Source: Patescibacteria group bacterium (GTDB taxonomy: Bacteria > Patescibacteriota > Patescibacteriia > Patescibacteriales > JAQVLT01). From it: a DNA stretch of 64,000 bases. Positions within the stretch are counted from its first letter, which is position 1, and every line of letters starts with the position of its first letter. The stretch lies in NCBI GenBank assembly GCA_028704015.1, contig JAQVLT010000006.1:10102-74101 (forward strand). Reading direction: 5' to 3'. The notes beneath the pieces were generated by a model. It saw only the letters and a list, made by a program, of their open reading frames with translations, was not told where the DNA came from and searched no databases. Both the position numbers and the translations under genes were made by a program. Below, one piece after another: positions 31,079-52,340 of this stretch.

Positions 31079-31897
31079 TTACAACGGACTTTTGATATTT
31101 TTTAAACTTGGTTTTGTCACCTGCGTATAAATTTGAGTAGTCCTGATATTGCAATGACCCAAGAGCTCCTGCACATATCTCACGTCTGTGCCGTTTTCTA
31201 AAAGATGCGTAGCAAAACTATGACGCAATGAATGGAAAGTTGCGTCTTTTTTTATTTTAGCTTTGGTCAAGGCATTTTCAAAAATCTTCTGCGCCGTTCT
31301 GTCGGTTAGCTTGCCGCCTTGATTACTTTCAAAAACCAAATCTTCGCCTCGCCTTCCCGCCAAATAATTTTTTAATTCTTCCCGCAATTTCTCCGGCAGA
31401 AGCGTAACCCGATCTTTTTTTCCTTTAGCTTCTTTCAAGTGAATAAAATTATTGGCGAAATCGACATCTTTTACTTTTAAATTTATGGCCTCGCTCACTC
31501 GGAAGCCAGCACCGTAAGATAAGGCAACCAATAGTTTGTGTTTGCCATTGCTTATCGCACCAATCACTTCTTCAATTTCCTCGCGCGACAAAACCACCGG
31601 CAATTTTTTGGAAGTCTTGGCAAATTTTAAATCAATCGCCACCGCGCTTTTAAAAATTTCCCGGTAAAGATGTTTAATGGCGTTGAGATGAAGATTTATC
31701 GTCTGCGACGACAAACCGCGTTCTTGTTTTTTCAGCAAATATTTTTTTATCAACTCAATCTCCGGATCTTTTTTGACTACTTTAATAAATTTAAAATAAT
31801 CAACCAAGCAACCAAGGTAGCTCTTAATCGTTTGCCGGCTGTAATTCCGCAGTTTTAATTCATTCTCAATTTTTACCAACAACTCTTTAAATTCCAT
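31079..31897 (-). CDS. tyrosine recombinase, integron-integrase-like but lacking the IntI-specific insertion
   Basis: 272 aa. Box I GAGFRVSEAINLKVKDVDF, KGKKDR, box II HSLRHSFATHLLENGTDVRYVQELLGHCNIRTTQIYTQV (R..H-x-x-R..H..Y). N-terminal SAM-like RNYSRQTIKSYL. Confidence 0.9.
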   Translation of the reverse strand: MEFKELLVKIENELKLRNYSRQTIKSYLGCLVDYFKFIKVVKKDPEIELIKKYLLKKQERGLSSQTINLHLNAIKHLYREIFKSAVAIDLKFAKTSKKLPVVLSREEIEEVIGAISNGKHKLLVALSYGAGFRVSEAINLKVKDVDFANNFIHLKEAKGKKDRVTLLPEKLREELKNYLAGRRGEDLVFESNQGGKLTDRTAQKIFENALTKAKIKKDATFHSLRHSFATHLLENGTDVRYVQELLGHCNIRTTQIYTQVTKPSLKNIKSPL

Positions 31898-32007
31898 ATT
31901 ATTATGTTATACTTAACAACAAGAGTGCTGTTACTAACAAAATACCAAAATTTCGCATAATATACAACGACAAGTAGTTAATTAACATAAAATTCGTATA
32001 AAAACTA

Positions 32008-32186
32008 GTTCCGCCGAAATCGCTCGCTTACGCTCGCTCCTTTTCGGCGGAACGGCTTCGGAATCCTTCCTCGTCCCGCTCAGTCGCTCGCTCACGCTCG
32101 CGACATCGCGGAACTCGGAATACGCGAAATTGCCTTTCGTCCCGAAGCGTCGGGACTCCGGCAACTTCGCTTATTCCGAAGCCGTT
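32008..32186 (+). repeat. 179-bp GC-rich ORF-less element, copy E1 (at the attI-like junction)
   Basis: GTTCCGCCGAAA...TTTCGGCGGAAC hairpin, then a GGCTTCGGAAT...ATTCCGAAGCC long stem, bounded by GTT on both sides. Identical to E2 and E3 by eye. Confidence 0.95.
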
Positions 32187-32290
32187 ATACGCCATAATAA
32201 AAAGCCTCTTTTATTTTTAGTAATAATTTTGGCAATTTATTTTGTGAGGTCGACGTATAATTTTTTAAGTAATATTAATTAACAAAAAAT

Positions 32291-32581
32291 ATGCGAGACA
32301 AAATTACATTTACACAAAACAACCCAGGAGGACAAACTGGATTTGACAGATTCGAAGAAATTATTACGACATTAAACCCCGATCTTCAGGCCATCCTGAA
32401 GAGAATTCCTGAAGAAAAAATTGCACAAATGCTTAAAACATTCGGTGAAGCCGGAATAACGCCTGATAAAATAAATTTCACATCTGCTCTACCTAACTTT
32501 TCTTCTAAAGATAATAATGTTATTTTTACTGGGACCAAGGCCGACGGCGAAGAAGTTAAATATGGTATTGATGTGGCTTAG
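32291..32581 (+). CDS. hypothetical protein (cassette C1)
   Basis: 96 aa. The ORF is bracketed by an about 45 bp inverted repeat (32193-32243 / 32586-32631). Confidence 0.55.
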   Translation: MRDKITFTQNNPGGQTGFDRFEEIITTLNPDLQAILKRIPEEKIAQMLKTFGEAGITPDKINFTSALPNFSSKDNNVIFTGTKADGEEVKYGIDVA

Positions 32582-32631
32582 GATAAATTAAATTGCCAAA
32601 ATTATTTTATTAATAGAGGCTTTTTATTACA

Positions 32632-32833
32632 GCGTATAACAACGCATATCTGGCTACGGAAATTGTGCATTAATAGAAACCTTGAGGTGGCACAATTTCC
32701 TCCGCCCAAATCCCGCACTAATTTTTGTGGGATTTGGATGGAGTTAAGCATTTAAAGAAGTTTGCATTAATTTATTGCTTGTTTAAGAAACAACGAAAAA
32801 TTAGCGCGGGACTTCAGATGATGCGTAAACGTT
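32632..32833 (+). other. attC-like site 1
   Basis: GCGTATAAC-AA-CGCATATCTGG ... CTTCAGATGATGCG-TAAAC-GTT. Confidence 0.65.
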
Positions 32834-33009
32834 CCGCCGAAATCGCTCGCTTACGCTCGCTCCTTTTCGGCGGAACGGCTTCGGAATCCTTCCTCGTCCC
32901 GCTCAGTCGCTCGCTCACGCTCGCGACATCGCGGAACTCGGAATACGCGAAATTGCCTTTCGTCCCGAAGCGTCGGGACTCCGGCAACTTCGCTTATTCC
33001 GAAGCCGTT
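32831..33009 (+). repeat. 179-bp element copy E2
   Basis: Identical to E1 by eye. It starts at the GTT of attC-like site 1. Confidence 0.95.
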
Positions 33010-33089
33010 AGGCGACATATTTTAAAAACGATTCCAAAAACTTTTTTTATCGCCTTCGGCGATTTGGGGGCGAAAACTTTTTTTATTTT

Positions 33090-33098
33090 TGTTATAAT
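33090..33098 (+). promoter_or_regulatory. extended -10 element TGTTATAAT, 6 nt before ATG 33105 (possible leaderless transcript)
   Basis: Sequence tttTGTTATAATgaatacATG. No convincing -35. Confidence 0.4.
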
Positions 33099-33104
33099 GA
33101 ATAC

Positions 33105-33335
33105 ATGAATACTAAACCTTACTACAAATACAAAGATTTTTCTCTTTTTCACGGCAACTGCCTTGATATTTTAGCTAAAATTCCAGAAAATTCGGTTGAT
33201 ATGATCTTCGCCGATCCACCCTACCTACTCTCAAATGGCGGTTTTACCTGTCATGCTGGTCAAATGGTTAGCGTAAATAAAGGCCAGTGGGATGTAAGCA
33301 ACGGCCTAAAGAAAGATTTTGAATTTCATCTATGA
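33105..33335 (+). pseudogene. 5' fragment of a DpnA-like (beta-class, DPPY) N6-adenine DNA methyltransferase
   Basis: 76 aa. TKPYYKYKDF...SVDMIFADPPYLLSNGGF...VSVNKGQWD closely parallels the N-terminus of M2.DpnII (DpnA) as I recall it. It stops after about 25 percent of the expected length, and its TGA overlaps the next ATG. Confidence 0.7.
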
Positions 33336-34099
33336 AAATAATTTTTAATACAGCTCTTGCAAATAAATATACTAGCTTATCTCAAAAAGCCAGAGTTTTA
33401 ACTGAAACATGGGTTGACAATGAAATATTTTGTCCGAGTTGTGGGACAAATATTGAAAATTATGAAAATAATCGTCCAGTAGCTGATTTTTATTGCCCAA
33501 ATTGCAAAGAGGAATATGAATTAAAAAGCAAAAAAGATGGTTTGTCTAAAAAAATTGTTGATGGAGCTTATAAAACAATGCTTGAGAGATTAAAAAGCAA
33601 TAATAATCCGAACTTTTTTTTCTTAAATTACAATCCGATAAAATATGAGGTTTTAAACTTCTTGGTTATCCCAAAACATTTTTTTGTCCCTGATATCATC
33701 GAGAGAAGAAAACCATTATCAGAAAACGCTAGACGAGCTGGCTGGATAGGTTGTAATATCTTGCTTCAAGCTATTCCGCAAAGCGGAAAAATATTTTATA
33801 TAAAAAATGGAAATATTGAGAGCAAAGAGGATGTCTTAAAAAATTGGCAAAAAACTTTATTTTTAAGAGACTCAGACAAAGCTGAATTAAAAGGCTGGAT
33901 TTTAGATATAATGAGTTGTATTGATAAATTGAATAAAATAGAATTCTCTCTCGATGAAATTTATAATTTTGAAAACATTTTAAGCAAAAAACATCCGGAA
34001 AATAGACACATCAAAGATAAAATAAGGCAGCAACTACAATTTCTGAGAGACAAGGGGTATTTGAAATTTTTAGACAGAGGAAAATATAAATTAGTTTAA
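33332..34099 (+). CDS. DpnI-like methyl-directed (type IIM) restriction endonuclease
   Basis: 255 aa, collinear with remembered DpnI. SQKARVLTETWV, CPSC...NNRPVADFYCPNC zinc ribbon, EYELKSKK (D-EXK), NNPNFFFL, ARRAGWIGCNI, and the C-terminal wH IRQQLQFLRDKGYL..GRGKYKL. Confidence 0.8.
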   Translation: MKIIFNTALANKYTSLSQKARVLTETWVDNEIFCPSCGTNIENYENNRPVADFYCPNCKEEYELKSKKDGLSKKIVDGAYKTMLERLKSNNNPNFFFLNYNPIKYEVLNFLVIPKHFFVPDIIERRKPLSENARRAGWIGCNILLQAIPQSGKIFYIKNGNIESKEDVLKNWQKTLFLRDSDKAELKGWILDIMSCIDKLNKIEFSLDEIYNFENILSKKHPENRHIKDKIRQQLQFLRDKGYLKFLDRGKYKLV

Positions 34100-34301
34100 A
34101 ATTATGGAAATCAACATCAGCCCTTTACTGGCAAAAAATATTTTACGAATTAATTTTCTCACAAGAATAAAAATTATGTGCCGCGGATATAGTGAAGATA
34201 AAAAAAATTTCACCGAGCTTGTTTGGCCAGACGACAAAGATCTTGATTTTTACAACAAGAAAGATTATCCGCAATTTCAACTTTGGTTTATTTGAATTTA
34301 A

Positions 34302-35144
34302 ATGAAATATTCTATGGAAACTAATCATATTGCTATTTTTAAAGGCAAATCAATTAGAAAAACTATTTTTCATAACGAGTGGTGGTTTTCGGTAATTGAC
34401 GTTGTCGAAGCTCTAACCGGTACGGGCAGACCTAGAAAATATTGGAATGATTTAAAGAAAAAGCTACTAAGCGAAGGATTTTTTGAAGTGTCCGAAAAAA
34501 TCGGACAGTTTAAATTAATGGCTTCAGACGGCAAAATAAGAGAAACTGACTGCGCCGATACCGAGACAATGTTTCGTATTATTCAATCTATTCCATCACC
34601 AAACGCCGAACCATTTAAGCGCTGGCTAGCTAAAGTTGGTTACGAAAGAACCCAAGAAATTGAGAATCCTGAGCTGGGAATTAAAAGAACAAAGACTCTT
34701 TACAAACTTAAAGGATATTCTGAGGACTGGATTGAAAAGCGCATGCGTGGTATTACTATACGTGAAGAATGGACCGATGAATGGAAAAAACGAGGCGTTA
34801 AGGAAAATATCGAGTTTGCTATCTTAACCGCCGAAATATCAAAAGCAACTTTCGGCATGACACCAAGCCAATACAAAAAATTTAAAGGCTTAAAACGAGA
34901 AAATTTGCGAGACCACATGGACGACCTTGAATTAATTTTTTCTATGCTCGGCGAAGCTTCAACTACAAAGATTACTAGAAGCAAAAATGCAAATGGTTTT
35001 ATCGAGAATAAAACTGCCGCCCAGAAAGGCGGAAAAATCGCGGGTGATGCCAGGCGAAAACTTGAGGTTGAATCCGGCGACAAGGTTATTACTAGAAAAA
35101 ATTATTTAATAGGCGCTCAAAATCTTAAAAAACTAAAAAAATAA
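34302..35144 (+). CDS. Bro-N domain protein (antirepressor/DinD-like)
   Basis: 280 aa with the N-terminus IAIFKGKSIRKTIFHNEWWFSVIDVVEAL, typical of Bro-N. Confidence 0.65.
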   Translation: MKYSMETNHIAIFKGKSIRKTIFHNEWWFSVIDVVEALTGTGRPRKYWNDLKKKLLSEGFFEVSEKIGQFKLMASDGKIRETDCADTETMFRIIQSIPSPNAEPFKRWLAKVGYERTQEIENPELGIKRTKTLYKLKGYSEDWIEKRMRGITIREEWTDEWKKRGVKENIEFAILTAEISKATFGMTPSQYKKFKGLKRENLRDHMDDLELIFSMLGEASTTKITRSKNANGFIENKTAAQKGGKIAGDARRKLEVESGDKVITRKNYLIGAQNLKKLKK

Positions 35145-35250
35145 AAAAATTTTCGCCCCAAATCTAATTCGCTTCGCGAATTATAAAAAAAGTTTTTGGA
35201 ATCGTTTTTAAAATACGCTAAAGCCACGCTGCGCTCTCGCTATCGCTCGG

Positions 35251-35348
35251 GTCGCCTAACAACCGATATCCGGTTCGGGGCTCAGCTCGCCCCTCTCCCA
35301 TATTTTTGCTCCCGTTGGTCGCAAAAACATCGGATATCGCGAAACGTT
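35251..35348 (+). other. attC-like site 2
   Basis: GTCGCCTAAC-AA-CCGATATCCGG ... CATCGGATATCG-CGAAAC-GTT. Its R'' is the exact reverse complement of GTTAGGCGAC at 33007. Confidence 0.7.
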
Positions 35349-35524
35349 CCGCCGAAATCGCTCGCTTACGCTCGCTCCTTTTCGGCGGAACGGCTTCGGA
35401 ATCCTTCCTCGTCCCGCTCAGTCGCTCGCTCACGCTCGCGACATCGCGGAACTCGGAATACGCGAAATTGCCTTTCGTCCCGAAGCGTCGGGACTCCGGC
35501 AACTTCGCTTATTCCGAAGCCGTT
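35346..35524 (+). repeat. 179-bp element copy E3
   Basis: Identical to E1 by eye. Confidence 0.95.
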
Positions 35525-35544
35525 ATATGACATTTTAAAAAAAT

Positions 35545-35922
35545 ATGAATACGGAGCAATTGAAAAACAACAAATATTTTCTAGGATGCTATACAGACCC
35601 CGGAGCGTTTAACGGGTGGCAAATTGGGTCATTTTTTCCTGAAAACCATCCGTGCAGAACTGACATGGTTGAATTATTGTATAAAGAGCATGCCGCCGGA
35701 GATACAGAAAAGCCCCATTACCACAAACAAAAAATTGAATTAATAATCATGCTCGAGGGACAAGCCAAGTATAACGTAAACGGAAAAGATGTTCTGTTAG
35801 AAAACAGCAATTTTTTATTTGTAGATACAAACAATGTTATTTACGGGGAATTTCTAAAGCCTTCGAAAATATTTGTAGTGCACACACCTAGCCTGCCTAA
35901 GGATAAAACTTTAATTGAGTAG
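35545..35922 (+). CDS. cupin-fold protein (cassette C3)
   Basis: 125 aa with the HYH..E..LEG cupin-like motif PHYHKQKIELIIMLEG. Confidence 0.55.
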   Translation: MNTEQLKNNKYFLGCYTDPGAFNGWQIGSFFPENHPCRTDMVELLYKEHAAGDTEKPHYHKQKIELIIMLEGQAKYNVNGKDVLLENSNFLFVDTNNVIYGEFLKPSKIFVVHTPSLPKDKTLIE

Positions 35923-35938
35923 AAATTTTTTTAAAACA

Positions 35939-36058
35939 TCATATAACAAAGAATATCTGGTTCAAGAATTTTTCTTGTTAATGTATAAGGAGTAAAAATT
36001 CTTTCACCCAAATTTTATTTCACTACGTTCAATAAAACTTCAGATATTCTTATACGTT
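35939..36058 (+). other. attC-like site 3
   Basis: TCATATAAC-AAA-GAATATCTGG ... TTCAGATATTC-TTATAC-GTT. Confidence 0.65.
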
Positions 36059-36232
36059 CCGCCGAAATCGCTCGCTTACGCTCGCTCCTTTTCGGCGGAA
36101 CGGCTTCGGAATCCTTCCTCGTCCCGCTCAGTCGCTCGCAAGCTCGCGACATCGCGGAACTCGGAATACGCGAAATTGCCTTTCGTCCCGAAGCGTCGGG
36201 ACTCCGGCAACTTCGCTTATTCCGAAGCCGTT
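36056..36232 (+). repeat. 177-bp element copy E4 (short variant GCTCGCAAGCTCGC)
   Basis: Same as E1 except for a 2-nt shorter inner hairpin. Confidence 0.95.
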
Positions 36233-36376
36233 AGCTGAAATATATATTTTTCTTTTGCCCTGCGGGGCAACTCTTAAAAAGAATTCAATTTTTGTTTTTT
36301 TATTAATTAGAAAGGGGTAATAAGTGTTTTCTTCGCTACGCTACAAAAACGATTTATTAATTAATCCAAAAAATAT

Positions 36377-38548
36377 ATGAAGAAACAATTAACAATTCTA
36401 CTAATTCTAACTTTTATTTTAGGGTTAGTGCCTTTCAATTTTTCAGAGGCGATTACTCAAAATCAAATTAGTGCCGAGGTTCAAATTGTTTGCCCGGACA
36501 ACTACGGAAATTGGTATAGCGGTTCGGGAACAATCATTGATCCTAAAGGAATTATTTTGACAAATAAGCACGTGGTATCCGACCAATATGGCGGAATTAT
36601 AAAAACCTGCTTTATTGGCTTTACGGAATCCATAAGCCAAGAACCAAATTTTGGTACTGAAACAAACCCAAATTTGGCAGAGGTAAAGTATTATACGACT
36701 GCAAATGATATGGATGCGGCTATCTTGTATCTCAATAATCTAACAAATAAAAGCTACGCTTATGTTGATATATGGAATTCCAACTCAAACGCTTTGCAAT
36801 TCGGCCACAAAATTGAAGCTATTGGTTTTCCCGGTATTGGCGGCTCGACAATAACTTATACTTCTGGCGATTTTAGTGGTTTTGGTAGTACGTCAGACGG
36901 AACACAAAATTACCTAAAGGCCACAACTCCACTCGAACATGGCAACTCTGGTGGTGCGGCATATAATCCAACAGGGCAATTTATCGGCATTCCAACAATG
37001 GTGGTTGCTGGCACTTTAAATTCTTTAAGTTATATCTTATCCGTCAATAGTATTAAAAGTTGGTTGTCTGGGATTTTAGGAAATAATTATCAACAAGAGG
37101 TTATCGAGCAAAAACCAATCGTAGAAAAACCAAAAGTCAGCGTGCAGAACGATATCACGCCGCCCGACATTAGTAAGTATAAACCAATTGCTACATGGAA
37201 TACGTTTATTTATTATGATTTATATAATAAAAATAATGAAACAATAAAAATGGGTCAATCAATAGATAATAAAATTATTCAAACTGGCATTTCTAACAAA
37301 ATTTCCTTATACACAAGCTACTCAGGAGATAAGACTTGGAATAAAACTATGGGTTATGACGTGGTTGAAAGTGAAAGCGGACTTTACAGTGTTTATTATA
37401 AATTCTCAAATAGTTTATCAGGATTAAACGATAAACCTTATGAAGAACAGGTGTTAAAATTAGATCTTGGCAGAACTGCAATTACTCCAATAATTGAATT
37501 ACCCGATAAAGAAGGCAGTTATTATTTTTCAATTAAATTTAAAGATAACGCAGGGAATGTTTCAAATGAATACATTTTAACGTATACATATTTAAAAGAG
37601 CATTATAAAGAATTAAAAACTTTGTATTTTTATTCTGATAAAAATTATAAAAATCTAATTGGTAGTTACGACATGAACTTTCTCTTTGATGGTTTTGATT
37701 ATTTGCGATGTATCACAAAATATAATACTGTCTATGTTCGATGGAAATATGATGATGACGATCAATTTCCTGGTTATGTAGCGAGAATCTTCCCTGACGA
37801 TATGTACGCGCTCAACCCTTCGGATACTATCAATAATAAAAACCTATCTTTAATAACAAATAATAAAATTCCCGTATATAATATAAATAAGTCAACAAAA
37901 GACGATCATGTATCCGATCTAAAAATATGCATGGATAAAAACGATACTCTGTGCAATTTAAGTGGCCAGGTAACATCGCTTTTGCTAAAACCAGTTGCAA
38001 ATAAGGACCTTTTTTTGGAAGGCAAAAATACTGTTGTAAAATTTCATTACAATTCAAATTTTGATCAAGGGTTTATGTGTGGATATCCTGATATAGAAAA
38101 TGAAAGTAAGCGCAATGCCATAGGAGAACCAAATTATTATATTCTAACTCAAGGTAATACTAATGCATCTAATGATTTATCGGAAAAGTTAAGCGGCCGC
38201 ATATTATTGCAAGTTGAAGCTCATGGTGAAGCTTATTATGTATATCCTAAAGACGGCAAAAGATACTATATGGCCAACGGTAATGAAGCATACAGAATAA
38301 TGAGATATTTAGGTGTTGGTATAACCAACAACGATTTGAATAAAATCAAAAATGATAAAAATTTCGCTAAAAAACACAGCGGAAAAATATTTTTGCAGGT
38401 TGAATCTCGTGGCGAAGCCTATTATATAGACTTTAACGGCAACGCCCATTATCTAAAGGATGGCGCCGCTGCATATACCGCCATGAGAGAATTAGGGCTT
38501 GGGATTACTAATAATAATTTAAATAAAATTCCAGAAGGAAGATTGTGA
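36377..38548 (+). CDS. secreted trypsin-like (S1/S1C-type) serine peptidase with large C-terminal extension and two terminal repeats
   Basis: 723 aa. Signal peptide or TM, TNKHV (His), DMDAAIL (Asp), GNSGGAAY (Ser). Two about 55-aa C-terminal repeats (LQVEaHGEAYY...GITNNdLNKI). Confidence 0.7.
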   Translation: MKKQLTILLILTFILGLVPFNFSEAITQNQISAEVQIVCPDNYGNWYSGSGTIIDPKGIILTNKHVVSDQYGGIIKTCFIGFTESISQEPNFGTETNPNLAEVKYYTTANDMDAAILYLNNLTNKSYAYVDIWNSNSNALQFGHKIEAIGFPGIGGSTITYTSGDFSGFGSTSDGTQNYLKATTPLEHGNSGGAAYNPTGQFIGIPTMVVAGTLNSLSYILSVNSIKSWLSGILGNNYQQEVIEQKPIVEKPKVSVQNDITPPDISKYKPIATWNTFIYYDLYNKNNETIKMGQSIDNKIIQTGISNKISLYTSYSGDKTWNKTMGYDVVESESGLYSVYYKFSNSLSGLNDKPYEEQVLKLDLGRTAITPIIELPDKEGSYYFSIKFKDNAGNVSNEYILTYTYLKEHYKELKTLYFYSDKNYKNLIGSYDMNFLFDGFDYLRCITKYNTVYVRWKYDDDDQFPGYVARIFPDDMYALNPSDTINNKNLSLITNNKIPVYNINKSTKDDHVSDLKICMDKNDTLCNLSGQVTSLLLKPVANKDLFLEGKNTVVKFHYNSNFDQGFMCGYPDIENESKRNAIGEPNYYILTQGNTNASNDLSEKLSGRILLQVEAHGEAYYVYPKDGKRYYMANGNEAYRIMRYLGVGITNNDLNKIKNDKNFAKKHSGKIFLQVESRGEAYYIDFNGNAHYLKDGAAAYTAMRELGLGITNNNLNKIPEGRL

Positions 38549-38605
38549 TAGCAAAATAGAAACGATAAATATAAATTTTAAAAAATTAGCCTTAAACAAA
38601 AAACA

Positions 38606-39811: not shown

Positions 39812-39830
39812 TTAATTAAAATGCTATAAT

Positions 39831-44276: not shown

Positions 44277-44316
44277 ATTAAGTGTGGATAAAATAAATTC
44301 ATTTCATTTAAAATAA

Positions 44317-45363: not shown

Positions 45364-47611
45364 AATTATGAACAATATTCTTCAATTAAAAGGTGTCCTT
45401 CAAGAACGTTCGCATATTGGCCGGCCAAGCTCTCGTAATGTTCCAAAAAATTCCCCAACTATAAATTCTGATAAACTAAAAAATTTGGTTAGACAGCTCC
45501 AGGATCTTGCTGATTATTGGACTAGGCAAAATATTATTAAGGGTTGCTTAGTTGATGTTTGTTATATCGACGTCATCGCTAAGAGTAATAGAATTAGTGG
45601 GTTATTATCAAGTAGTGGCTCTGTAAATGACTCTGTTGTTGGTGCAAGATTTGCTAATGAAGAGACAAGAAAACATGTGATTACGCATCATGTCAGCGAA
45701 AAAGTAATTCAGGATACAATTAAAAAATTAGAAGGCTGTATAAAGCTATTAGATGAAATATTTAGCGGAAAGATAACCCATGATTTGATTGGTGGTTTAA
45801 ATGATAAAAATATAAAGTATGAAAAATATGGGGTAACAAAAACAAATTTTCGAAATATAATTGTAGATTCACATTATGTAGAAGGTTTTACGGTTCCAAA
45901 TAACAGTGCAAACACAAATAATAGATCAATAATTACAATATATAAAACTAATGTTGGTTTAACTGAATTAATGAAAGATATCGGTATAAACGTTCAGCCT
46001 GATAAAATACTAAGTGAAACCACCTTGCTTTTATACCCAGATGAAATCAAACTCTTGTCAGACAAGGCACCATATCTAATTGCAATGTCGACAGAAGATA
46101 TATCTAAACTAAGTTTTAAAGATATTGTTGATGGCGCAAACAGCGAATCTGCTATAAAAACAATAGGATCACCCAAAGACGAACCTATTGTTGGCGTAAT
46201 AGATACTTTATTTGATGAATCAGTGTATTTTTCTGAATGGGTGGATTTTAGAAAAATGATCAATAAAGAAATACCTACGGAATCCAAAGATTATGTTCAC
46301 GGAACATCGGTAAGTTCAATTATTGTTGATGGGCCAACTATTCACCCAGAGCTAGATGATGGGTGTGGCAGATTCAGAGTTAGGCATTTTGGTGTAGCCG
46401 CACAAGGACAGTATAGCGCCTTTTCTATTATGAAAGCCATAAAAGAGATAGTTACTTCAAATCCAGATATAAAGGTATGGAATCTGTCTTTGGGATCCGA
46501 CAGAGAAATTAATCCCAATTTTATATCACCAGAAGCAGCTATACTAGATGAAATTCAATATGAAAATAATGTTATTTTTGTAATAGCAGGCACTAATAAA
46601 CGCGACGATGAAAGTAGGGTAGAAAAAATGATTGGCTCGCCCGCCGATTCAATTAATGCTATAGTTGTAAATTCGGTAAATAGTAAGGGATCTCCAGCAA
46701 CCTATTCCAGAAAGGGGTTAGTTTTATCATTTTTTAATAAACCAGACGTTAGTAGTTATGGAGGTGATAATGGCGATTATCTTAGGGTGTGTACACCAAC
46801 TGGCGAAGGTTTGTGCAGTGGTACTTCATACGCAGCTCCATGGGTAACTCGAAAAATTGCTTACTTGATAGAAGTACTCGGACTTAATCGAGAAGTCGCA
46901 AAAGCGCTAATTGTAGACGCTGCTGCTGGGTGGAATAGTATTGGCAATAATACTAAATTAGCACCCTTTGTGGGCCATGGGGTAGTACCTAAAAATATAG
47001 AAAACATTATAAAAGCGGATAATGATGAAATAAAGTTTATCATAAGTGGTATCTCTGAGAAATGGGATACATATGCTTATAATTTACCTGTTCCAACACA
47101 TAATAATAAACACCCTTTTGTTGCCAAAGCTACCTTATGTTATTTTCCCGGCTGCTCTATTAATCAAGGAGTTGATTACACAAACACAGAACTAGATATA
47201 TATTTTGGTAGAATTAAAGACAAGGGTATTAAGTCTATAAACAAGAATTGTCAAAATAATGATGACGGCGAAAAACATTATATATACGAAGGTAATGCCA
47301 GGGAATTTTACCGAAAATGGGACAACACTAAACATATAAATGAAATTCTTACAGATAGAGTTCATGCACGCGACGTTTACGATAAAGGCATGTGGGGACT
47401 AAGTATTAAATCAAAAGAAAGATTGAGTAGGCGTAGCAATGGTATTAATTTTGGTTTAGTTGTGACATTAAAGGAGATTTATGGAGTTAATAGAATTAAT
47501 GATTTTGTACATCAATGCGAATTACTTGGCTGGTTGGTAAATCGTGTAGATATAGATAATAAAATTGATATCTATAACAAGGCTCAGGAAATAGTTACAT
47601 TTGATAAGTAA
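45356..47611 (+). CDS. S8 subtilisin-like serine peptidase, IetS-like
   Basis: 751 aa with triad contexts VGVIDTLFD, HGTSVSSII, GTSYAAPWV. It overlaps the ATPase gene by 8 nt. Confidence 0.75.
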   Translation: MSKIMNNILQLKGVLQERSHIGRPSSRNVPKNSPTINSDKLKNLVRQLQDLADYWTRQNIIKGCLVDVCYIDVIAKSNRISGLLSSSGSVNDSVVGARFANEETRKHVITHHVSEKVIQDTIKKLEGCIKLLDEIFSGKITHDLIGGLNDKNIKYEKYGVTKTNFRNIIVDSHYVEGFTVPNNSANTNNRSIITIYKTNVGLTELMKDIGINVQPDKILSETTLLLYPDEIKLLSDKAPYLIAMSTEDISKLSFKDIVDGANSESAIKTIGSPKDEPIVGVIDTLFDESVYFSEWVDFRKMINKEIPTESKDYVHGTSVSSIIVDGPTIHPELDDGCGRFRVRHFGVAAQGQYSAFSIMKAIKEIVTSNPDIKVWNLSLGSDREINPNFISPEAAILDEIQYENNVIFVIAGTNKRDDESRVEKMIGSPADSINAIVVNSVNSKGSPATYSRKGLVLSFFNKPDVSSYGGDNGDYLRVCTPTGEGLCSGTSYAAPWVTRKIAYLIEVLGLNREVAKALIVDAAAGWNSIGNNTKLAPFVGHGVVPKNIENIIKADNDEIKFIISGISEKWDTYAYNLPVPTHNNKHPFVAKATLCYFPGCSINQGVDYTNTELDIYFGRIKDKGIKSINKNCQNNDDGEKHYIYEGNAREFYRKWDNTKHINEILTDRVHARDVYDKGMWGLSIKSKERLSRRSNGINFGLVVTLKEIYGVNRINDFVHQCELLGWLVNRVDIDNKIDIYNKAQEIVTFDK

Positions 47612-47762
47612 CCGTTAGTTTACAATTCCATCGGAGCTGTGTAAAAACAAAAGTACGTTTAATAGTATCACCAAAAAGTTTTAGGGATCAAACCCAAATA
47701 AAAGACAAAAATTCCCTCCCCTTAAACCCCTTCCTTTTTGCCTTTTATTTGAAAAGAATAAG

Positions 47763-47825
47763 GAGTTTTAGATTTTGGGCATTCACCCCTAACCCCTCTG
47801 CCCAAAATCCAAAACAAAAAACAAA
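47763..47825 (+). repeat. conserved hairpin with C-rich loop, copy 2
   Basis: Matches 39831-39896. It is preceded by a second AT-stem/C-rich-loop hairpin at about 47697-47755. Confidence 0.85.
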
Positions 47826-47879
47826 TTTATTATTAAGTAGCCTATCAAAATATTATTTTATTTAAAATATTTTTGAACA

Positions 47880-48005
47880 GCGTATAACACGGCATAATCT
47901 GGTTCCAGAATTTTTCATTAACAGTTAATAATAAGGAGTAAAAAATTCTTACACCCATATTTGCCTCCGCTACGCTACGGCAAACATCAGATATGCCGAT
48001 ACGTT
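47880..48005 (+). other. attC-like site 5
   Basis: GCGTATAAC-AC-GGCATAATCTGG ... CATCAGATATGCC-GATAC-GTT. Its R'' is the reverse complement of GTTATACGC at 40226. Confidence 0.7.
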
Positions 48006-48181
48006 CCGCCGAAATCGCTCGCTTACGCTCGCTCCTTTTCGGCGGAACGGCTTCGGAATCCTTCCTCGTCCCGCTCAGTCGCTCGCTCACGCTCGCGACA
48101 TCGCGGAACTCGGAATACGCGAAATTGCCTTTCGTCCCGAAGCGTCGGGACTCCGGCAACTTCGCTTATCCCGAAGCCGTT
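48003..48181 (+). repeat. 179-bp element copy E6
   Basis: As E1 with one substitution (TTATCCCGAAG). Confidence 0.95.
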
Positions 48182-48219
48182 AGACGAAATTTTTCAAAGC
48201 TACTAACAAAAATGAATAT

Positions 48220-48531
48220 ATGAAAAAAATTATTATCATTTCAACAATTATTATTCTGATTCTAGTAACTATTACTGGATTTATTTATTTTTATATGAAC
48301 CAAGGGTCTGATATTTCCGGGTTTCCAGATTATTATAAAAATTTAGCCAAAGAATGTGAATTAAAGCTAAGTCATGATTGTTGCATGTCTTCAGTAAACA
48401 TAATGACTAATGGAAATTATCAATTAGCTCCTGGCAAAACATTAGCAGAAAGCGGCTGCCCGGAAGGATATCAACCAAATATGTTAAAATGTATTGATAG
48501 CTTCAGATGGTGTGAGCCAATAAAACGGTAG
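48220..48531 (+). CDS. small secreted/membrane-anchored Cys-rich protein (cassette C6)
   Basis: 103 aa with an N-terminal TM helix and 7 Cys in the ectodomain. Confidence 0.55.
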   Translation: MKKIIIISTIIILILVTITGFIYFYMNQGSDISGFPDYYKNLAKECELKLSHDCCMSSVNIMTNGNYQLAPGKTLAESGCPEGYQPNMLKCIDSFRWCEPIKR

Positions 48532-48543
48532 TTTTGAAAAACA

Positions 48544-48595
48544 TCACTTAACACGCAATAAGCGACATTAAAACAATCGCTTATTGCGGGACGTT
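48544..48595 (+). other. attC-like site 6 (compact, no 179-bp element)
   Basis: TCACTTAAC-AC-GCAATAAGCGA-CATTAAAACAA-TCGCTTATTGC-GGGAC-GTT. Confidence 0.75.
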
Positions 48596-48660
48596 ATCGG
48601 AATTGCTCTTTTACAAAATACTTTTTAGGGGCTACATAACACGAAAAAAAGGAGGACAAG

Positions 48661-48903
48661 ATGGCCATCCAAGTCACAAGTTGGCAAGATCTAGCCGAGA
48701 AAACGTTCTTTAGCGGCTTAACTGCCCAAGAAGTTAAGGAAATGGGACTAACTTACAAACCAGGGAAAAGCTTTTCAACCCTGGCACAGACAATCAATAC
48801 TACAGGACCTCGTCCACCTTACAGTTACTGGGCAGTATTAGCCGGAAGGGAGGATGTTCTTCGAGAACATCTCGAAGGCAATCTTACAAACGACCGTGAT
48901 TAA
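48661..48903 (+). CDS. hypothetical protein (cassette C7)
   Basis: 80 aa with a strong SD, AAAGGAGGacaagATG. Confidence 0.55.
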   Translation: MAIQVTSWQDLAEKTFFSGLTAQEVKEMGLTYKPGKSFSTLAQTINTTGPRPPYSYWAVLAGREDVLREHLEGNLTNDRD

Positions 48904-48999
48904 CAGGGCTCCTTGGGGACATAAGCATGTCCCCGCCCCTAAAAAGCATTTTGTATTTTGGCTAATCGCCAAAAGGCTATCGCCTAAAAGAGCAATACA

Positions 49000-49121
49000 T
49001 CCGATAACACGGCATATCCAGCTCGGACTTTTCCGAAAGTCCTCACGCAAATTTTTGTTTCTCTTTACTTTATAATAAATAAAGGTGGAGAAACAAAATC
49101 TTCGGATGATGCCGAAACGTT
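49000..49121 (+). other. attC-like site 7
   Basis: TCCGATAAC-AC-GGCATATCC ... GGATGATGCC-GAAAC-GTT. Its R'' is the reverse complement of GTTATCGGA at 48593. Confidence 0.7.
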
Positions 49122-49315
49122 CCGCCGAAATCGCTCGCTTACGCCTGCCTACCGGCAGGCAGGCTCGCTCTTTTTCGGCGGAACGGCTTCGGAATTCTTC
49201 CTCGTCCCGCTCAGTCGCTCGCAAGCTCGCGACATCGCGTAACTCGGAATAAGCGAAATTGCCTTTCGTCCCGAAGCGTCGGGACTCCGGCAACTTCGCT
49301 TATTCCGAAGCCGTT
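49119..49315 (+). repeat. 197-bp element copy E7 (divergent; carries a nested GC-rich palindrome)
   Basis: Short variant with several substitutions. CCTGCCTACCGGCAGGCAGG (49143-49164) is inserted in the first hairpin loop. Confidence 0.95.
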
Positions 49316-49349
49316 GTACGAAATATCATTCACCTTTAATTCGTAAAAT

Positions 49350-49769
49350 ATGAAAACTGCCTACATATTCGGGCCAATTCATTTATTCGGACAAGATTAT
49401 TTACCCGTCTATAAACATCTCATGAAACTTTGTGAGCCGTATTTTGATAAAGTCATTGGCACTTATCCCGATTTTTGGGATAGTAAAGAAACTCCGCGTG
49501 AATTTTATGACCGCACCTACCAAGTTATTACTAAATGCCAGCTTTTTATCGGCGAGGTCTCAAGTCCTTCGATGGGTGTTGGCATGGAATTTCAAATGGC
49601 GCAGGAAAACAATATCCCATGTATAGCGCTTTGCAAAAAAGGAGTTGAGCCGTCGATGATGATCGCTGGCATACCTTGTACTAAAAAAGTTGTTTATTAT
49701 GAAGACTTCGCCGACTTGTCCGAACAAATGAATGAGATATTAAAAGATACGAGCTGGTTAAACGGGTGA
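49350..49769 (+). CDS. nucleoside 2-deoxyribosyltransferase-like protein (cassette C8)
   Basis: 139 aa with the SMGVGMEFQMA nucleophile-loop pattern. It differs at 2 aa from the 59818-60237 copy. Confidence 0.6.
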   Translation: MKTAYIFGPIHLFGQDYLPVYKHLMKLCEPYFDKVIGTYPDFWDSKETPREFYDRTYQVITKCQLFIGEVSSPSMGVGMEFQMAQENNIPCIALCKKGVEPSMMIAGIPCTKKVVYYEDFADLSEQMNEILKDTSWLNG

Positions 49770-49777
49770 ACGATACA

Positions 49778-49828
49778 TCGTACAACACGCGATATCCAAA
49801 ATTAGAACTTCAAATATGCCGAAACGTT
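49778..49828 (+). other. attC-like site 8 (compact)
   Basis: TCGTACAAC-AC-GCGATATCC-AAAATTAGAAC-TTCAAATATGCC-GAAAC-GTT. Confidence 0.7.
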
Positions 49829-49853
49829 ATCTGAAATTTCACCCCTCCTCACT

Positions 49854-50501
49854 ATGGTAGATAAAAAAACTTTTGAATTAGCAAACAAGTTGTGGGACTA
49901 CCACCATGTTAATCAATCTCTTGAAAAATCTGATTGCATTTTAGTTCTGGGTAGCCATGATTTGAGGGTCGCCGAAAGAGGCGCGGAATTATATCTTGAA
50001 AAATGGGCACCGCTTATTATTTTTTCCGGCGGACTCGGCAACTTAACCAAAGGTATTTGGGGTGAAGCTGAAGCTGACAAGTTCGCAGCTGTTGCTCAAA
50101 AAATGGGTATTCCTAAAAAAAATATTTTGATTGAAAATAAATCAACTAACACCGGTGAAAACATATTATTTACGCAACGGCTGCTACGTGAAAAAAATCT
50201 AGACTTTCAATCTTTCATCGTTGTTCAAAAACCATATATGGAGCGTAGAAGCTATGCAACCTTTAAAAAACATTGGCCAAATAAAAAACTAATCGTAACT
50301 TCCCCCCAAATACCTTTTCTGGAATACTATAACGATGAGATTCCGCTCGAGAAAGTAATTAACATAATGGTCGGCGACTTACAAAGAATTAAAATATACC
50401 CTGATAAAGGCTTTCAGATTTTTCAAGAGATTCCCACGGACGTATGGGAAGCGTACGAGCAACTTGTTGAGTTAGGCTATGATAAACATTTAGTGCGTTG
50501 A
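49854..50501 (+). CDS. YdcF/DUF218 family protein (cassette C9)
   Basis: 215 aa with the CILVLGSHD...FSGG...STNTGEN pattern of DUF218. Confidence 0.7.
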   Translation: MVDKKTFELANKLWDYHHVNQSLEKSDCILVLGSHDLRVAERGAELYLEKWAPLIIFSGGLGNLTKGIWGEAEADKFAAVAQKMGIPKKNILIENKSTNTGENILFTQRLLREKNLDFQSFIVVQKPYMERRSYATFKKHWPNKKLIVTSPQIPFLEYYNDEIPLEKVINIMVGDLQRIKIYPDKGFQIFQEIPTDVWEAYEQLVELGYDKHLVR

Positions 50502-50518
50502 ACCGGAGGGGCAAAACA

Positions 50519-50686
50519 TCACCTAACACCGCGATAAGCGGCTACAGAAAAGTTTCTTAATTAATATAATAATGAGTAAACTTTTCTTCCGGCCCAAATT
50601 TTGCAGATGAATAATAATTATAATAATGTATCTGCAAAACTTCGCTTATTCCGAAGCCGTTAAAACATCGCATACGCCGAAACGTT
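50519..50686 (+). other. attC-like site 9 (compound: two GTT ends, contains the 3' 25 nt of the 179-bp element)
   Basis: TCACCTAAC-AC-CGCGATAAGCGG ... ACTTCGCTTATTCCGAAGCC-GTTAAAAC-ATCGCATACGCC-GAAAC-GTT. Confidence 0.6.
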
Positions 50687-50753
50687 AGCTGAAATATTAT
50701 TCGGGGAGCGCCCCGCAAAAAAATTTATATAATTCTTAATCAATCAAAATAAT

Positions 50754-51383
50754 ATGCAACCTGATTACAACCTTGAATTCGCTCATATTTATGCAGATGA
50801 AGAATTTGGATTAGAACAACTCAAAAGTTTGGAGGTTTTGAAGAAAGTCATTTCAAAATTAAAAAAAGAAAATAAAACTTTCGTTACTTCTATTTTGATT
50901 GACGAATTTCATCCCGTAGTTTTCAGACTCGATGAAAATAAGATTATCGAAGAATTCAAAAAACATGGCATTGTTGTGGATTTTATCGGTTATGAATCAA
51001 AACTTGGAATTATAGCTGATAAAATTCTAAAAGAACTTCCAAAATCAATGTTAAAACTTGAACATTTTCATAAACCGGAGAAAGAAATTTTGATGTTAAA
51101 AGAAAATAATAAAAAAATTGGTTTAAAAGAAGACTTTGCGTTTATGTATAGACATACTTGTGCATTATTAAGTTGCTCTTGGTCACTTTGTAGATTAGGA
51201 ATTTTTAAAATTCCCAAAGATGCCATCAGAAACTTAAGCAATGCAAATTTTGATGCCAAACGAATAATCACGATTCTCCCCGAAAAATATCGTGTAGTTG
51301 AAGATAAAATCATTGAGATAATAAAATCATCAAAATACAAAAAGGCCGTACAAAATATAGAATATGAATTCTTCGAAATTTAA
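50754..51383 (+). CDS. hypothetical protein (cassette C10)
   Basis: 209 aa, no recognised motif. Confidence 0.55.
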   Translation: MQPDYNLEFAHIYADEEFGLEQLKSLEVLKKVISKLKKENKTFVTSILIDEFHPVVFRLDENKIIEEFKKHGIVVDFIGYESKLGIIADKILKELPKSMLKLEHFHKPEKEILMLKENNKKIGLKEDFAFMYRHTCALLSCSWSLCRLGIFKIPKDAIRNLSNANFDAKRIITILPEKYRVVEDKIIEIIKSSKYKKAVQNIEYEFFEI

Positions 51384-51446
51384 CTCAGCGCTCCCTGCGT
51401 CATACTGTCGCTTCGTTTCGCTCTACTCATTCGCCTTACAGGTTCA

Positions 51447-51533
51447 CCACATAACACGGCTTAAACGGAAATTTCTTACAAAAATTAACTAAATGCTCGG
51501 CTAACGCCTCGCACTTCGTTAAGCCGAAACGTT
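51447..51533 (+). other. attC-like site 10
   Basis: CCACATAAC-AC-GGCTTAAACGG ... CGTTAAGCC-GAAAC-GTT. Confidence 0.7.
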
Positions 51534-51557
51534 AGGCTAAATATTTTTTTAAATACT

Positions 51558-52187
51558 ATGAAAACATTAATTCTCGCTTCGAGCGGACAGTTTATAACCA
51601 ATAACAATGTTGATAATTTTTTGCCTAAAAAAATAGCTGATTGCAAAATCGCATATATTATAACCGCTTCAAAAAAGACTTCAGATACCGGATATATAGA
51701 CAAGCATCGACAAAAAATGGACGAATTAAATTTCTACTACGACGAAATAGACATTGCCGGTATGCATGAAAGCGAATTGAAAAAGGCACTTGACGGGCAT
51801 GATATTATTATGGTTGAGGGTGGTAACGCATTTTATTTGTTGAAAGCTATAAGAGAAAGCGGCTTTGATAATGTTATAAAAAAGTTAATTGATAACGGCG
51901 TAGTTTATATTGGCTCAAGCGCCGGTTCTTATGTTGCGTGCCCATCAATAATTGTATCAACCTATACTAATAAACAAAGAGATAGATGCGGTATTACCGA
52001 TTTTACTGGAATGAACTTAGTGCCTTTTTTAATCAAAGCACATTACACGCCAGACATGTTGCCAGACATGAAGGATCTTAGAAAAAACGTGGAATACCCG
52101 TTGCATATTTTAAATGACCAACAAGCACTATTGATTAGAGACGGAGAATTTCAACTCTTAGGTAGCGGTAAAGAAATAATATTATAA
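51558..52187 (+). CDS. peptidase S51 (dipeptidase E-like) (cassette C11)
   Basis: 209 aa with the nucleophile-elbow context VYIGSSAGS. Confidence 0.65.
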   Translation: MKTLILASSGQFITNNNVDNFLPKKIADCKIAYIITASKKTSDTGYIDKHRQKMDELNFYYDEIDIAGMHESELKKALDGHDIIMVEGGNAFYLLKAIRESGFDNVIKKLIDNGVVYIGSSAGSYVACPSIIVSTYTNKQRDRCGITDFTGMNLVPFLIKAHYTPDMLPDMKDLRKNVEYPLHILNDQQALLIRDGEFQLLGSGKEIIL

Positions 52188-52217
52188 GTATATTTATCAC
52201 GACGAAAAAAATTAAAT

Positions 52218-52340
52218 CACACAACACTATATATCTAGTTCAGAAATTTTACATTAATAAAGAGTAAAAATTTATTAATACTATATTTTATATTTTTTCT
52301 CATTTGAATAAGCAAACAAGATAAAAATATCAGACATTTT
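52218..52340 (+). other. terminal, degenerate attC-like half-site
   Basis: TCACACAAC-AC-TATATATCTAG and the shared inner module (TTCAGAAATTTT..AAGAGTAAAAATTT) are present. No matching L'-GAAAC-GTT is found. Confidence 0.45.

Follow-up and report, generated by a model that had tools for sequence, protein, structure and literature searches.

A probable cassette-capture platform with an I2-less, Xer-like recombinase in a Patescibacteria group bacterium

Introduction

Integrons, Xer/dif systems and the elements that hitch-hike on Xer recombination are the closest described relatives of the locus reported here. An integron integrase is defined by a PF00589 domain plus an IntI-specific domain (PMC9668308). 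The prevailing view is that this domain, I2, enabled single-strand recombination, and no intermediates are known (PMC7790495). Here we analyze a 64,000-nt stretch of contig JAQVLT010000006.1 from a Patescibacteria group bacterium, a member of the candidate phyla radiation (CPR); the whole stretch is called the window. Within positions 31079–52340, a divergently oriented tyrosine recombinase gene adjoins a conserved attI-like site and an array of 11 cargo cassettes with seven copies, plus one remnant, of a mini-cassette termed c0. In our judgement this block is probably a chromosomal cassette-capture platform that has an integron-like layout, uses I2-less Xer/dif-like parts, occurs in many CPR lineages and carries defense-rich cargo.

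We found no integron or integron-like platform in the literature on CPR, Patescibacteria, Parcubacteria or Saccharibacteria, as covered by open-access papers that included those on IntegronFinder 2.0 and archaeal integrons and one metagenome study. An initial annotation of the window had proposed such a platform, with a divergent recombinase, a one-directional array, attC-like hairpins, G|TT crossover scars, defense cargo and a CPR host. Every one of these elements holds, with the corrections of detail given below.

Results

Every long open reading frame (ORF) from 32291 to 52187 lies on the plus strand, and the recombinase gene and both flanks, made up of housekeeping genes, lie on the minus strand. 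GC skew is negative in both flanks and flips only within the block. The gene orientation first described is confirmed. Sequence 100% identical to the locus is contained in SRR22315503. The parts of the locus are as follows; "strict scanner" refers to the site search described further on.

31079–31897, minus: tyrosine recombinase, 272 aa, IntI/XerA-like, lacking the I2/ALER domain (Pfam, NCBIfam, structure, alignment)
31886–31913, plus: candidate Pc-like promoter TTTAAA-16-TG-TATACT from a promoter scan, directed towards the array; it overlaps the start codon of the recombinase gene
31951–32010, plus: attI-like region, with a TTCGCATAATATAC motif at 31951–31967 and the core TTCGTATAAAAAC-TAG|TT at 31993–32010
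32008–32186, plus: c0 copy 1, a 177-nt ORF-less structured mini-cassette
32184–32833, plus: cassette 1, 96-aa ORF (32291–32581); 200-nt attC (32632–32833) with a bulged G in L'; strict-scanner match
32831–33009, plus: c0 copy 2, from repeat comparison
33007–35348, plus: cassette 2, methyltransferase N-terminal fragment, DpnI-like restriction endonuclease, 63-aa ORF and Bro-N/PDC-S13 gene; attC 35252–35348
35346–35524, plus: c0 copy 3, from repeat comparison
35522–36058, plus: cassette 3, cupin protein (35545–35922); attC 35939–36058, a strict-scanner match that folds
36056–36232, plus: c0 copy 4, GCAAGC variant
36230–40054, plus: cassette 4, trypsin-like protease (36377–38548) and Shedu SduA (38606–39811); attC 39955–40054, strict-scanner match
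40052–40228, plus: c0 copy 5, GCAAGC variant
40226–48005, plus: cassette 5, 7.8 kb with five genes; attC 47880–48005
48003–48181, plus: c0 copy 6, from repeat comparison
48179–48595, plus: cassette 6, 103-aa ORF (48220–48531) with a hydrophobic N-terminal stretch; short attC 48544–48595; head/R'' mismatch
48593–49121, plus: cassette 7, 80-aa ORF (48661–48903); attC 49000–49121 with a bulged G; strict-scanner match
49119–49315, plus: c0 copy 7, variant whose hairpin 1 carries 18 inserted nt
49313–49828, plus: cassette 8, 139-aa ORF (49350–49769); hybrid, non-folding attC 49778–49828
49826–50686, plus: cassette 9, DUF218 protein (49854–50501); attC 50519–50661, then a collapsed 25-nt unit (50659–50686)
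50684–51533, plus: cassette 10, 209-aa ORF (50754–51383); attC 51447–51533
51531–52340, plus: cassette 11, S51 peptidase (51558–52187); decayed terminal attC from 52217; array end
59681–60274, minus: cassette 8, lone copy located outside the array; its attC is intact and runs from AAC at 59803 to GTT at 59681

Read from the junctions, each of which carries GTT, the order is attI, c0, C1, c0, C2, c0, C3, c0, C4, c0, C5, c0, C6, C7, c0, C8, C9, a collapsed unit, C10, C11. The count of 11 first given for the array stands for its cargo cassettes and had overlooked the c0 copies: because each of seven "spacers" is a copy of the same 177-nt unit, which lacks an ORF and has a site of its own, the array comprises at least 18 units (11 cargo cassettes and seven c0).

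Cargo cassettes end in an imperfect hairpin of the form ACATC-nnnT-AAC-A-(11-bp stem)...(stem)-RAAC-G|TT. The AAC...GTT palindromes described initially are indeed present, and their R box is here corrected to effectively 9 nt (TC-nnnn-AAC / GTT-nnnn-GA). We pooled 127 distinct sites from the window and related loci, 76 with a 4-nt spacer (46–196 nt long, median 116) and 51 with a 5-nt spacer (median 85 nt). The ACA of ACATC lay outside the search criteria and was found in 59–63 of the 76. The stem consists of 11 Watson-Crick pairs, four variable covarying pairs at the junction followed by a conserved ATATCTG or ATATGCG, and the junction is asymmetric, with 1 nt opposite 4–5 nt. In an alignment of 17 sites, 95.9% of cells were paired, against 17–40% in slid controls, and 8 of 10 pairs showed compensatory changes; since the sites were selected for pairing, the paired fraction is partly a matter of construction, whereas this does not apply to the variety of pair types. 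A bulged G in L' (CAGAT[G]ATGCC) occurs in 11 of the 76 sites, from several lineages. Mismatches in the stems, which bear on the folding strand, are few (eight G.T and three A.C).

Bottom-strand folding gave z-scores of −2.3 to −7.4 for the array sites, with the exception of the hybrid at 49778–49828. Among the three sites singled out as examples by the initial annotation, 48544–48595 (z −7.4) and 51447–51533 (z −2.7) exist and fold, and 49778–49828 exists with its arms unpaired (z +0.8). At this hybrid site the homology between the two copies of cassette 8 stops directly after R'' plus AC, and L'' and L' of the array copy do not pair, which hints at exchanges or deletions ending at the R''/L'' border. 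The 3' half of the cassette 9 site reads as a c0-type end, and the terminal site of cassette 11 keeps a recognizable R''/L'' with an eroded 3' half.

For counting we used a strict scanner (AAC, 1 nt, a 10-nt stem with at least 9 pairs, 4–5 nt, GTT and flank motifs). In the window it returned 10 plus-strand sites, all within the array, one minus-strand site, which is that of the lone cassette copy, and none elsewhere. Its criteria were taken from this window and miss more divergent sites, so all site counts are lower bounds. A loose hairpin scanner (AAC...GTT with a 9-nt stem) was dropped, as it gave about 10 matches per 64 kb in Markov shuffles and 0.06–0.10 per kb in control flanks. A covariance model built from trimmed sites (R1) matched short-loop sites whole, among them the cassette 6 site (48544–48595, 50 bits), split long-loop sites into weak halves, and was kept out of the counts. 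A scan for "canonical attC" sites with 5/5 spacers was uninformative, having missed two known attC sites of a class 1 integron. Rfam gave nothing meaningful for the whole window at the gathering threshold or for 35200–36420 at E ≤ 1.

Crossover at G|TT would leave each cassette with the complement of its own R'' box at its 5' end. Seven of the 11 cargo cassettes start in exactly this way. The pairs reported at the outset (32184/32632, 33007/35251, 35522/35939, 36230/39955, 40226/47880, 48593/49000 and 49313/49778) are all exact reverse complements of 9–10 nt; in cassette 1, the head GTTATACGC is the reverse complement of R'' GCGTATAAC. When R'' boxes were permuted among cassettes over the six variable positions, the observed 54 of 66 matches compared with a mean of 38.4 (P = 4e-5), and none of 100,000 permutations reached seven perfect pairs. 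The complementarity exceeds chance by far. Among independent units from other loci, 23 of 64 had a perfect head/R'' match (permuted mean 2.8, maximum 11), including a compensatory pair, GTTATATTC / GAATATAAC, in which the usually conserved GA/TC is altered on both sides. Head–tail complementarity runs on for 23–33 nt beyond the R box, as in the perfect 33-nt inverted repeat of cassette 2 (33018–33050 / 35183–35215). The head of cassette 10 equals that of cassette 4 and matches the R'' at 39961.

Further observations bear on cassette movement. The lone copy of cassette 8 sits between two housekeeping genes, a 294-aa gene and an M18 aminopeptidase gene, and its 139-aa ORF matches that of the array copy at about 96–100% identity. 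The stretch homologous in the two copies begins exactly at GTTGTACG (GTT) and ends after R'', and the sequences upstream are unrelated. The site that the lone copy occupies, ..CAGAG|TT.., is a GAG|TT secondary site resembling the attI core. The last 22 nt of c0 occur unchanged in 58 metagenome contigs; the 12-mer heads joined to them after GTT are of at least 28 different sequences, each with the form GTT-R-nnn-GAAAT. The head/R'' pairs and the cassette boundaries at GTT, in the duplicated cassette and in the metagenome contigs, thus support the proposed G|TT crossover.

Content also varies between loci fetched for comparison (numbered with the prefix L). In the closest syntenic relative, L113, the recombinase shares 86% amino acid identity, synteny is seen for the FemAB-like gene at the far end (71% nucleotide identity), and the cassettes differ from those of the window: a methyltransferase, a short-chain dehydrogenase, and DUF4268 with an EcoRI-like methyltransferase. 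The arrays of L001, L003 and L022 all differ in content.

The sites are tied to the recombinase in position and direction. In 23 other CPR loci the strict scanner found 19 sites in 81 kb upstream of the recombinase gene, all pointing away from it and none in the opposite orientation; it found none in 390 kb downstream (both strands) and none in 636 kb around non-CPR homologues. Upstream-only, one-orientation sites were present in 11 CPR loci, and metagenome contigs anchored on c0 contained 115 sites in one orientation and none in the other. In the fetched loci the contig very often breaks off 100–800 nt upstream of the recombinase gene, which is what neighboring repeats would lead one to expect.

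The first crossover of the array lies at G32008|TT, in the attI-like region. A conserved core, AAACAC-TTCGCATAWWAAC-GAG|TT plus a cassette head, was found in 21 of 28 sequences, 67–167 nt (mostly 82–121) upstream of the recombinase start. The head follows the core directly in all 21 extracted cases, and more copies were seen by eye. Direct and inverted copies of a TTCGCATAAWATAC motif precede the core, as does an array-facing extended −10 element, which lies at the same place in most CPR loci (TGCTATAAT-like). From these features the core may be assigned an attI function and the upstream element a Pc-like promoter function.

The same region resembles dif. E. coli dif, verified in MG1655, is GGTGCGCATAA-TGTATA-TTATGTTAAAT, and the CPR attI core is TTCGCATAT-AAACGAG-TTAGGCGAAAT; it consists of an L arm TTCGCATAW, a center of about 7 nt and an R arm TTAnnnnGAAAT, about 90 nt upstream of the recombinase gene. 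The arms of attI and attC (TTCGCATAA.. / TTATnnnAAAT) resemble those of dif (GCGCATAA / TTATGTTAAAT): CGCATAA matches the XerC-side arm, and up to 9 of the 11 positions of the XerD-side arm are shared with cassette heads, for example TTATGCAAAAT or TTATATGAAAT. Read from the sequence, the R''-L'' strand of attC has the 6-nt arm spacing of dif and the L'-R' strand has 9–10 nt, which gives a 3–4-nt bulge. A 28-bp dif has two 11-bp arms, a 6-bp center and a terminus location; here the center is about 7 nt and, judged on the 64-kb window, the locus lies in uniform orientation and skew.

The recombinase combines PF00589 (E = 1e-42) with an N-terminal SAM-like domain (SAM_4) and has the R, K, HxxR, H and Y motifs at positions invariant in our alignment. 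Its best NCBIfam model was XerA_Arch (NF040815, 218.9 bits, cut-off 220). The integron integrase model TIGR02249 scored 216.4 bits in a two-stretch match, below its cut-off of 265; NF011946 scored 143.5 bits (cut-off 435), and the XerC and XerD models 184.7 bits. The best sequence match in the PDB was VchIntIA (2a3v), again in two stretches and with chain residues 212–243 lacking a counterpart, followed by Pyrococcus XerA. An AlphaFold model (pLDDT 82) likewise had VchIntIA 2a3v as its top Foldseek match, over 312–318 columns for 272 residues, and its alignment to XerA was collinear, at 270–272 columns. An alignment with the IntI1 of an E. coli plasmid showed insertions of 25 and 11 residues in IntI1, including ALERKYP, that are missing from the window protein as well as from four CPR homologues. 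By these alignments the enzyme is without the IntI-specific (I2/ALER) domain of about 36–49 aa. It is therefore not an integron integrase by the accepted definition, nor is the platform a bona fide integron.

The recombinase has more than 7,500 homologues. Among the 120 matches listed, lengths were 267–401 aa (mostly 272–278) and identities 68–100% (68–86% among homologues of 272–278 aa), source names spanned Parcubacteria, Moranbacteria and Pacebacteria, and several proteins were named at source "site-specific tyrosine recombinase/integron integrase". Titles of the loci add Falkow-, Uhr-, Kuenen- and Brennerbacteria, WWE3, Saccharibacteria and Gracilibacteria. For several other CPR-type loci the label is Gammaproteobacteria. 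A metagenome-assembled genome (CAYTIK01) labelled Bdellovibrionales contains two different recombinase-plus-attI loci, L009 and L019, with 72% and 61% identity to the window protein, which points either to two platforms in one genome or to a mixed or mislabelled bin. The closest non-CPR plasmid relatives are Clostridium XerA-like genes (40% identity), which lie beside IS91 transposases with no array, so that association with an array is not general to the XerA-like family. One of them, on Clostridium estertheticum plasmid pCF007-B (L122, 8001–10038), is a "tyrosine recombinase/integron integrase" paired with an IS91-family transposase. A phage origin was rejected: the closest IMG/VR recombinases are 23–28% identical, and c0 is absent from that database.

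The c0 unit is a GC-rich element of about 177 nt whose seven copies (starts 32008, 32831, 35346, 36056, 40052, 48003 and 49119) are 91–100% identical and interleaved with cargo; a 24-nt remnant lies at 50638–50661. A head GTTnnnnGAAA and a loop are followed by R''a, an exact 12-nt complement of the head. Directly after R''a, without a spacer, comes X, which pairs over 9–11 bp with X' just before the final GTT. Nested inside is another ACATC-nnnn-AAC (R''b), which has a separate L''/L' and a spacer of 5 nt, so that two R'' boxes serve one R'. In copy 1 the head is GTTCCGCCGAAA, R''a is TTTCGGCGGAAC, X/X' are GGCTTCGGAAT/ATTCCGAAGCC, the inner R''b is ACATCGCGGAAC, and the end reads ..AAGCC-G|TT; the bottom strand of its inner site folds at −31.6 kcal/mol (z −5.6). 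The same design recurs with other sequences and compensatory changes in L021 and L022 and, imperfectly paired, in L001, and partial copies occur in L011, L020 and L023. Often c0 is the first unit after attI, and often the last recognizable site. JGI groundwater samples carry it, and a comparison with Rfam gave no match. It was discarded as a coding element, no ORF being conserved between c0 families, and as a promoter, there being no sigma-70-like match. We conclude that c0 is a conserved class of ORF-less cassettes.

PADLOC bore out the defense-rich cargo expected from the initial annotation, identifying a DpnI-like enzyme, Shedu (SduA in cassette 4, 512 bits), a type II restriction-modification pair, IetAS and PDC-S13. 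Genes of cassettes 2 and 5 are listed here.

33332–34099, plus: DpnI-like methyl-directed restriction endonuclease, cassette 2 (PADLOC)
34302–35144, plus: Bro-N protein, PADLOC candidate PDC-S13 (385 bits), cassette 2
40421–41614, plus: type II methyltransferase, cassette 5
41616–42878, plus: DUF2130 protein, cassette 5
42881–44044, plus: GmrSD-N/HNH restriction endonuclease, cassette 5
44317–45363, plus: IetA, cassette 5
45356–47611, plus: IetS, cassette 5

Directly upstream of the DpnI-like gene, and overlapping it, a 76-aa ORF (33105–33335) is an N-terminal fragment, with a DPPY motif, of an N6-adenine DNA methyltransferase. Other cargo comprises the cupin, DUF218 and S51 peptidase genes and small ORFs that received no assignment. 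The Bro-N gene recurs inside the arrays of four other CPR lineages (L001, L003, L027 and L028) at 70–77% nucleotide identity. The S51 peptidase cassette has a homologue in L024 (66% nucleotide identity over 406 nt), located at the end of the contig about 430 nt upstream of the recombinase gene.

Many cassette start codons lie only 23–40 nt past the junction, which leaves no room for a promoter of their own; this holds for the cupin gene of cassette 3, with its ATG 23 nt after the junction. Cassettes 4 and 5 have a common 5' leader, tail and attC and different genes, and cassette 7 shares head and tail with an L067 cassette that has a different ORF. Different genes can thus occupy the same frame. 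The tails of cassettes 4 and 5 contain a 64-nt terminator-like hairpin (39826–39889 and 47758–47821, 94% identical). Their conserved leader, ..TTTGATTTTTT..ATTA-(T)AGAGGGGGTAAWA-GTGTTTTCTCC..loop..GGAGAAAACGATTTAT, lies at 36291–36370 and 40298–40385 and also occurs in L001, L013, L018 and L026. Its hairpin arms covary between loci, no Rfam family matched it at the gathering threshold, and it could be a promoter/leader or a regulatory RNA.

Just past the array end are a Cys-rich 72-aa ORF (52388–52606, minus) and a G+C-rich direct repeat, GC(T)TTCGCCGCCGCTCCC.., at 52451–52537. A tRNA/tmRNA search of the window found none, and hence no tRNA-type island attachment site.

Discussion

These observations fit a mechanism in which the recombinase of the window would be the enzyme that moves the cassettes. 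In a single-stranded, folded attC both dif-like arms would be rebuilt, the R''/R' duplex (TC-nnnn-TAAC / GTTA-nnnn-GA) acting as the R arm and the 11-bp stem, with its ATATCTG or ATATGCG part, as the L arm. By the established Xer mechanism, a tyrosine recombinase occupying the R arm would cleave at G|TT. The folded site would exchange one strand with attI or another attC at G|TT, and the resulting junction would be resolved by replication, by analogy with integrons and CTX-phi. Repeated insertions would build a co-oriented array, read from the Pc-like promoter beside the recombinase gene.

Several points weigh against the view that the locus is a cassette-capture platform of this kind. Four of the 11 cargo cassettes lack head/R'' complementarity, most R boxes within the array pair only through AAC/GTT, and several array sites are hybrid or decayed. 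The stem-covariation evidence is partly circular, the sites having been chosen for pairing. Cassettes of up to 7.8 kb with five genes are atypical for integrons. The fetched contigs contained no circular-cassette junction, no c0-c0 junction and no empty site; the junctions expected were ..TTCCGAAGCCG|TTCCGCCGAAATC for a c0 circle and ..ATGCCGAAACG|TTGTACGAAATATC for a cassette 8 circle, and apparent matches proved to be the palindrome read on the opposite strand. We know of no precedent for an I2-less enzyme in such a role. The recombinase is also unusually conserved (about 70% across CPR classes), which together with a XerA_Arch score near the cut-off fits a housekeeping enzyme; it could also be the housekeeping Xer, the case that the initial annotation had set against its own proposal. 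Finally, the I2 domain of IntI1 has been described as necessary for cassette capture and single-strand recombination (PMC7790495).

The alternative that survives best takes up the point on conservation. The recombinase would be the housekeeping chromosome-dimer resolvase of a single-Xer system (compare XerA, XerS and XerH) with the attI-like site as its dif, and the cassettes would be hitch-hikers resembling the integrative mobile elements exploiting Xer (IMEX), as CTX-phi does with XerCD. We regard it as possible but rather unlikely. It overlaps with a cassette-capture platform and differs only in the enzyme's dedication to the array. XerA_Arch as top NCBIfam model, the more than 7,500 homologues, of which those listed are mostly 272–278 aa long and 68–100% identical across CPR groups, the dif-like arms of attI and attC and the 6-nt spacing read from the R''-L'' half all speak for it, and xerS adjoins its own dif site. 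Yet dif is expected at the terminus, and no switch of orientation or GC skew occurs at the locus, both flanks being minus-strand with negative skew; the attI region, with three copies of the arm motif and an array-facing promoter, is more like attI1 than a plain 28-bp dif; and one metagenome-assembled genome, from a possibly mixed bin, carries two such loci.

In an improbable alternative the cassettes would be double-strand modules, recombined by Xer at 28-bp sites in the manner of pdif, with hairpins that are incidental. Each site half is dif-like, the 5' half with the canonical 6-nt spacing, and the hybrid-site breakpoints at the R''/L'' border hint at exchange there too. The sites of pdif modules, which are plasmid-borne, are simple 28-bp double-strand sites that alternate in orientation, whereas all sites here are direct (10 against 0 in the array, 115 against 0 in metagenomes). 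Neither L''/L' covariation nor cassette-specific R''/R' pairing would be necessary, and stems are preserved while loop length varies from 46 to 196 nt. A purely double-strand mechanism is thus disfavored by the need for both palindrome halves, the stem covariation, the variable loop and the cassette-specific pairing.

A classical integron, with a true IntI and canonical attC sites, is very improbable. It would share the layout of divergent recombinase, attI, co-oriented array, AAC...GTT hairpins and G|TT, and VchIntIA is the closest solved structure, with a TIGR02249 score of 216 bits. That score is below the cut-off of 265, however, and the window protein and all aligned CPR homologues lack the IntI-specific domain, so that by the recombinase criterion this reading is refuted. 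The sites differ as well, with 1 nt and 4–5 nt around an 11-bp stem against 5/5 nt around the L box in the dfrA17 and aadA5 attC sites, and a scanner for the CPR geometry found no site in the class 1 integron tested. Equally hard to credit are immobile repeats, that is, repetitive extragenic palindromic (REP), miniature inverted-repeat transposable element (MITE) or terminator-like elements of a variable island beside a recombinase that is unrelated or integrates only the whole island: some elements are terminator-like (39826–39889, 47758–47821), c0 is multicopy, GC-rich and palindromic like REP or MITE, and contigs break at these repeats, but sites lie only upstream of the recombinase in one orientation (11 CPR loci; 115 against 0 in metagenomes), cassette-specific head/R'' complementarity has no role in a terminator or REP, homology breaks exactly at GTT, and the window has no tRNA or island attachment site and no phage relatives were found in IMG/VR.

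With a cassette-capture platform thus preferred for the locus, a broader proposal, which we hold to be evenly poised between right and wrong, is that the CPR as a whole use a form of integron which either never gained I2 or can do without it, and in which a XerA-like enzyme acts on folded, dif-mimicking sites. If true, it would represent either the missing intermediate between Xer/dif, with its single-strand IMEX hitch-hikers, and IntI/attC, or an independent second invention of the integron; a widespread natural I2-less platform with dif-like arms would make integron origin directly testable. On the same premise, CPR lineages would draw on a common cassette pool, much of it phage defense, and the double-R'' mini-cassettes would be a new accessory component without a counterpart in known integrons. 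For bacteria with tiny genomes and few known mobile-element systems, the platform would be a general route of gene acquisition and exchange. IntegronFinder calls an integrase only if the IntI-specific profile matches too (PMC9668308); because that domain is absent, CPR platforms would go unreported as complete integrons and surveys may undercount them. A new recombination tool could be developed from the compact 272-aa recombinase and its short structured sites.

Among known systems, integrons (class 1, and the V. cholerae superintegron with VchIntIA) are alike in having a divergent recombinase, an adjacent multi-arm primary site and an array-facing promoter. They are also alike in their co-oriented, mostly promoterless cassettes, in AAC...GTT imperfect palindromes with conserved structure and variable loop, in G|TT crossover, in a single cassette at a secondary GTT site and in defense-rich cargo. 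In contrast to integrons, the CPR recombinase is without I2/ALER, the R box is 9 nt with complementarity beyond the box, and the sites have a 1 versus 4–5 nt junction, an 11-bp uninterrupted stem with an ATATCTG/ATATGCG core and dif-like arms; c0 is interleaved, cassettes reach 7.8 kb, and the host is CPR. Nor do the sites match the canonical attC, with its spacers of about 5 nt on both sides and extrahelical L-box bases; a bulged G is seen in just 11 of 76.

XerA, XerS/difSL and XerH/difH are similar in protein size and fold, in dif-like arms and in the gene lying beside its site. The CPR site differs in that it is not at a terminus-like switch, has extra arm motifs and is followed by an array of hairpin-ended cassettes. 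To our knowledge, no such cassette array is known for Xer systems.

In IMEX such as CTX-phi, with attP(+) and XerCD/dif1, two inverted dif-like half sites likewise fold into a mimic of the recombinase target, and one-strand exchange with resolution by replication would be common to both. The CPR units differ in being gene cassettes without replication or packaging genes, many of them stacked, and neither the recombinase nor c0 has close relatives in IMG/VR. An IMEX-like scenario for the origin of integrons has been discussed (PMC7790495), and the CPR platform matches it. Acinetobacter pdif modules, too, are small gene modules bounded by Xer-type sites and shuffled between replicons; the CPR sites differ from theirs in being direct, hairpin-forming, chromosomal and next to the recombinase gene.

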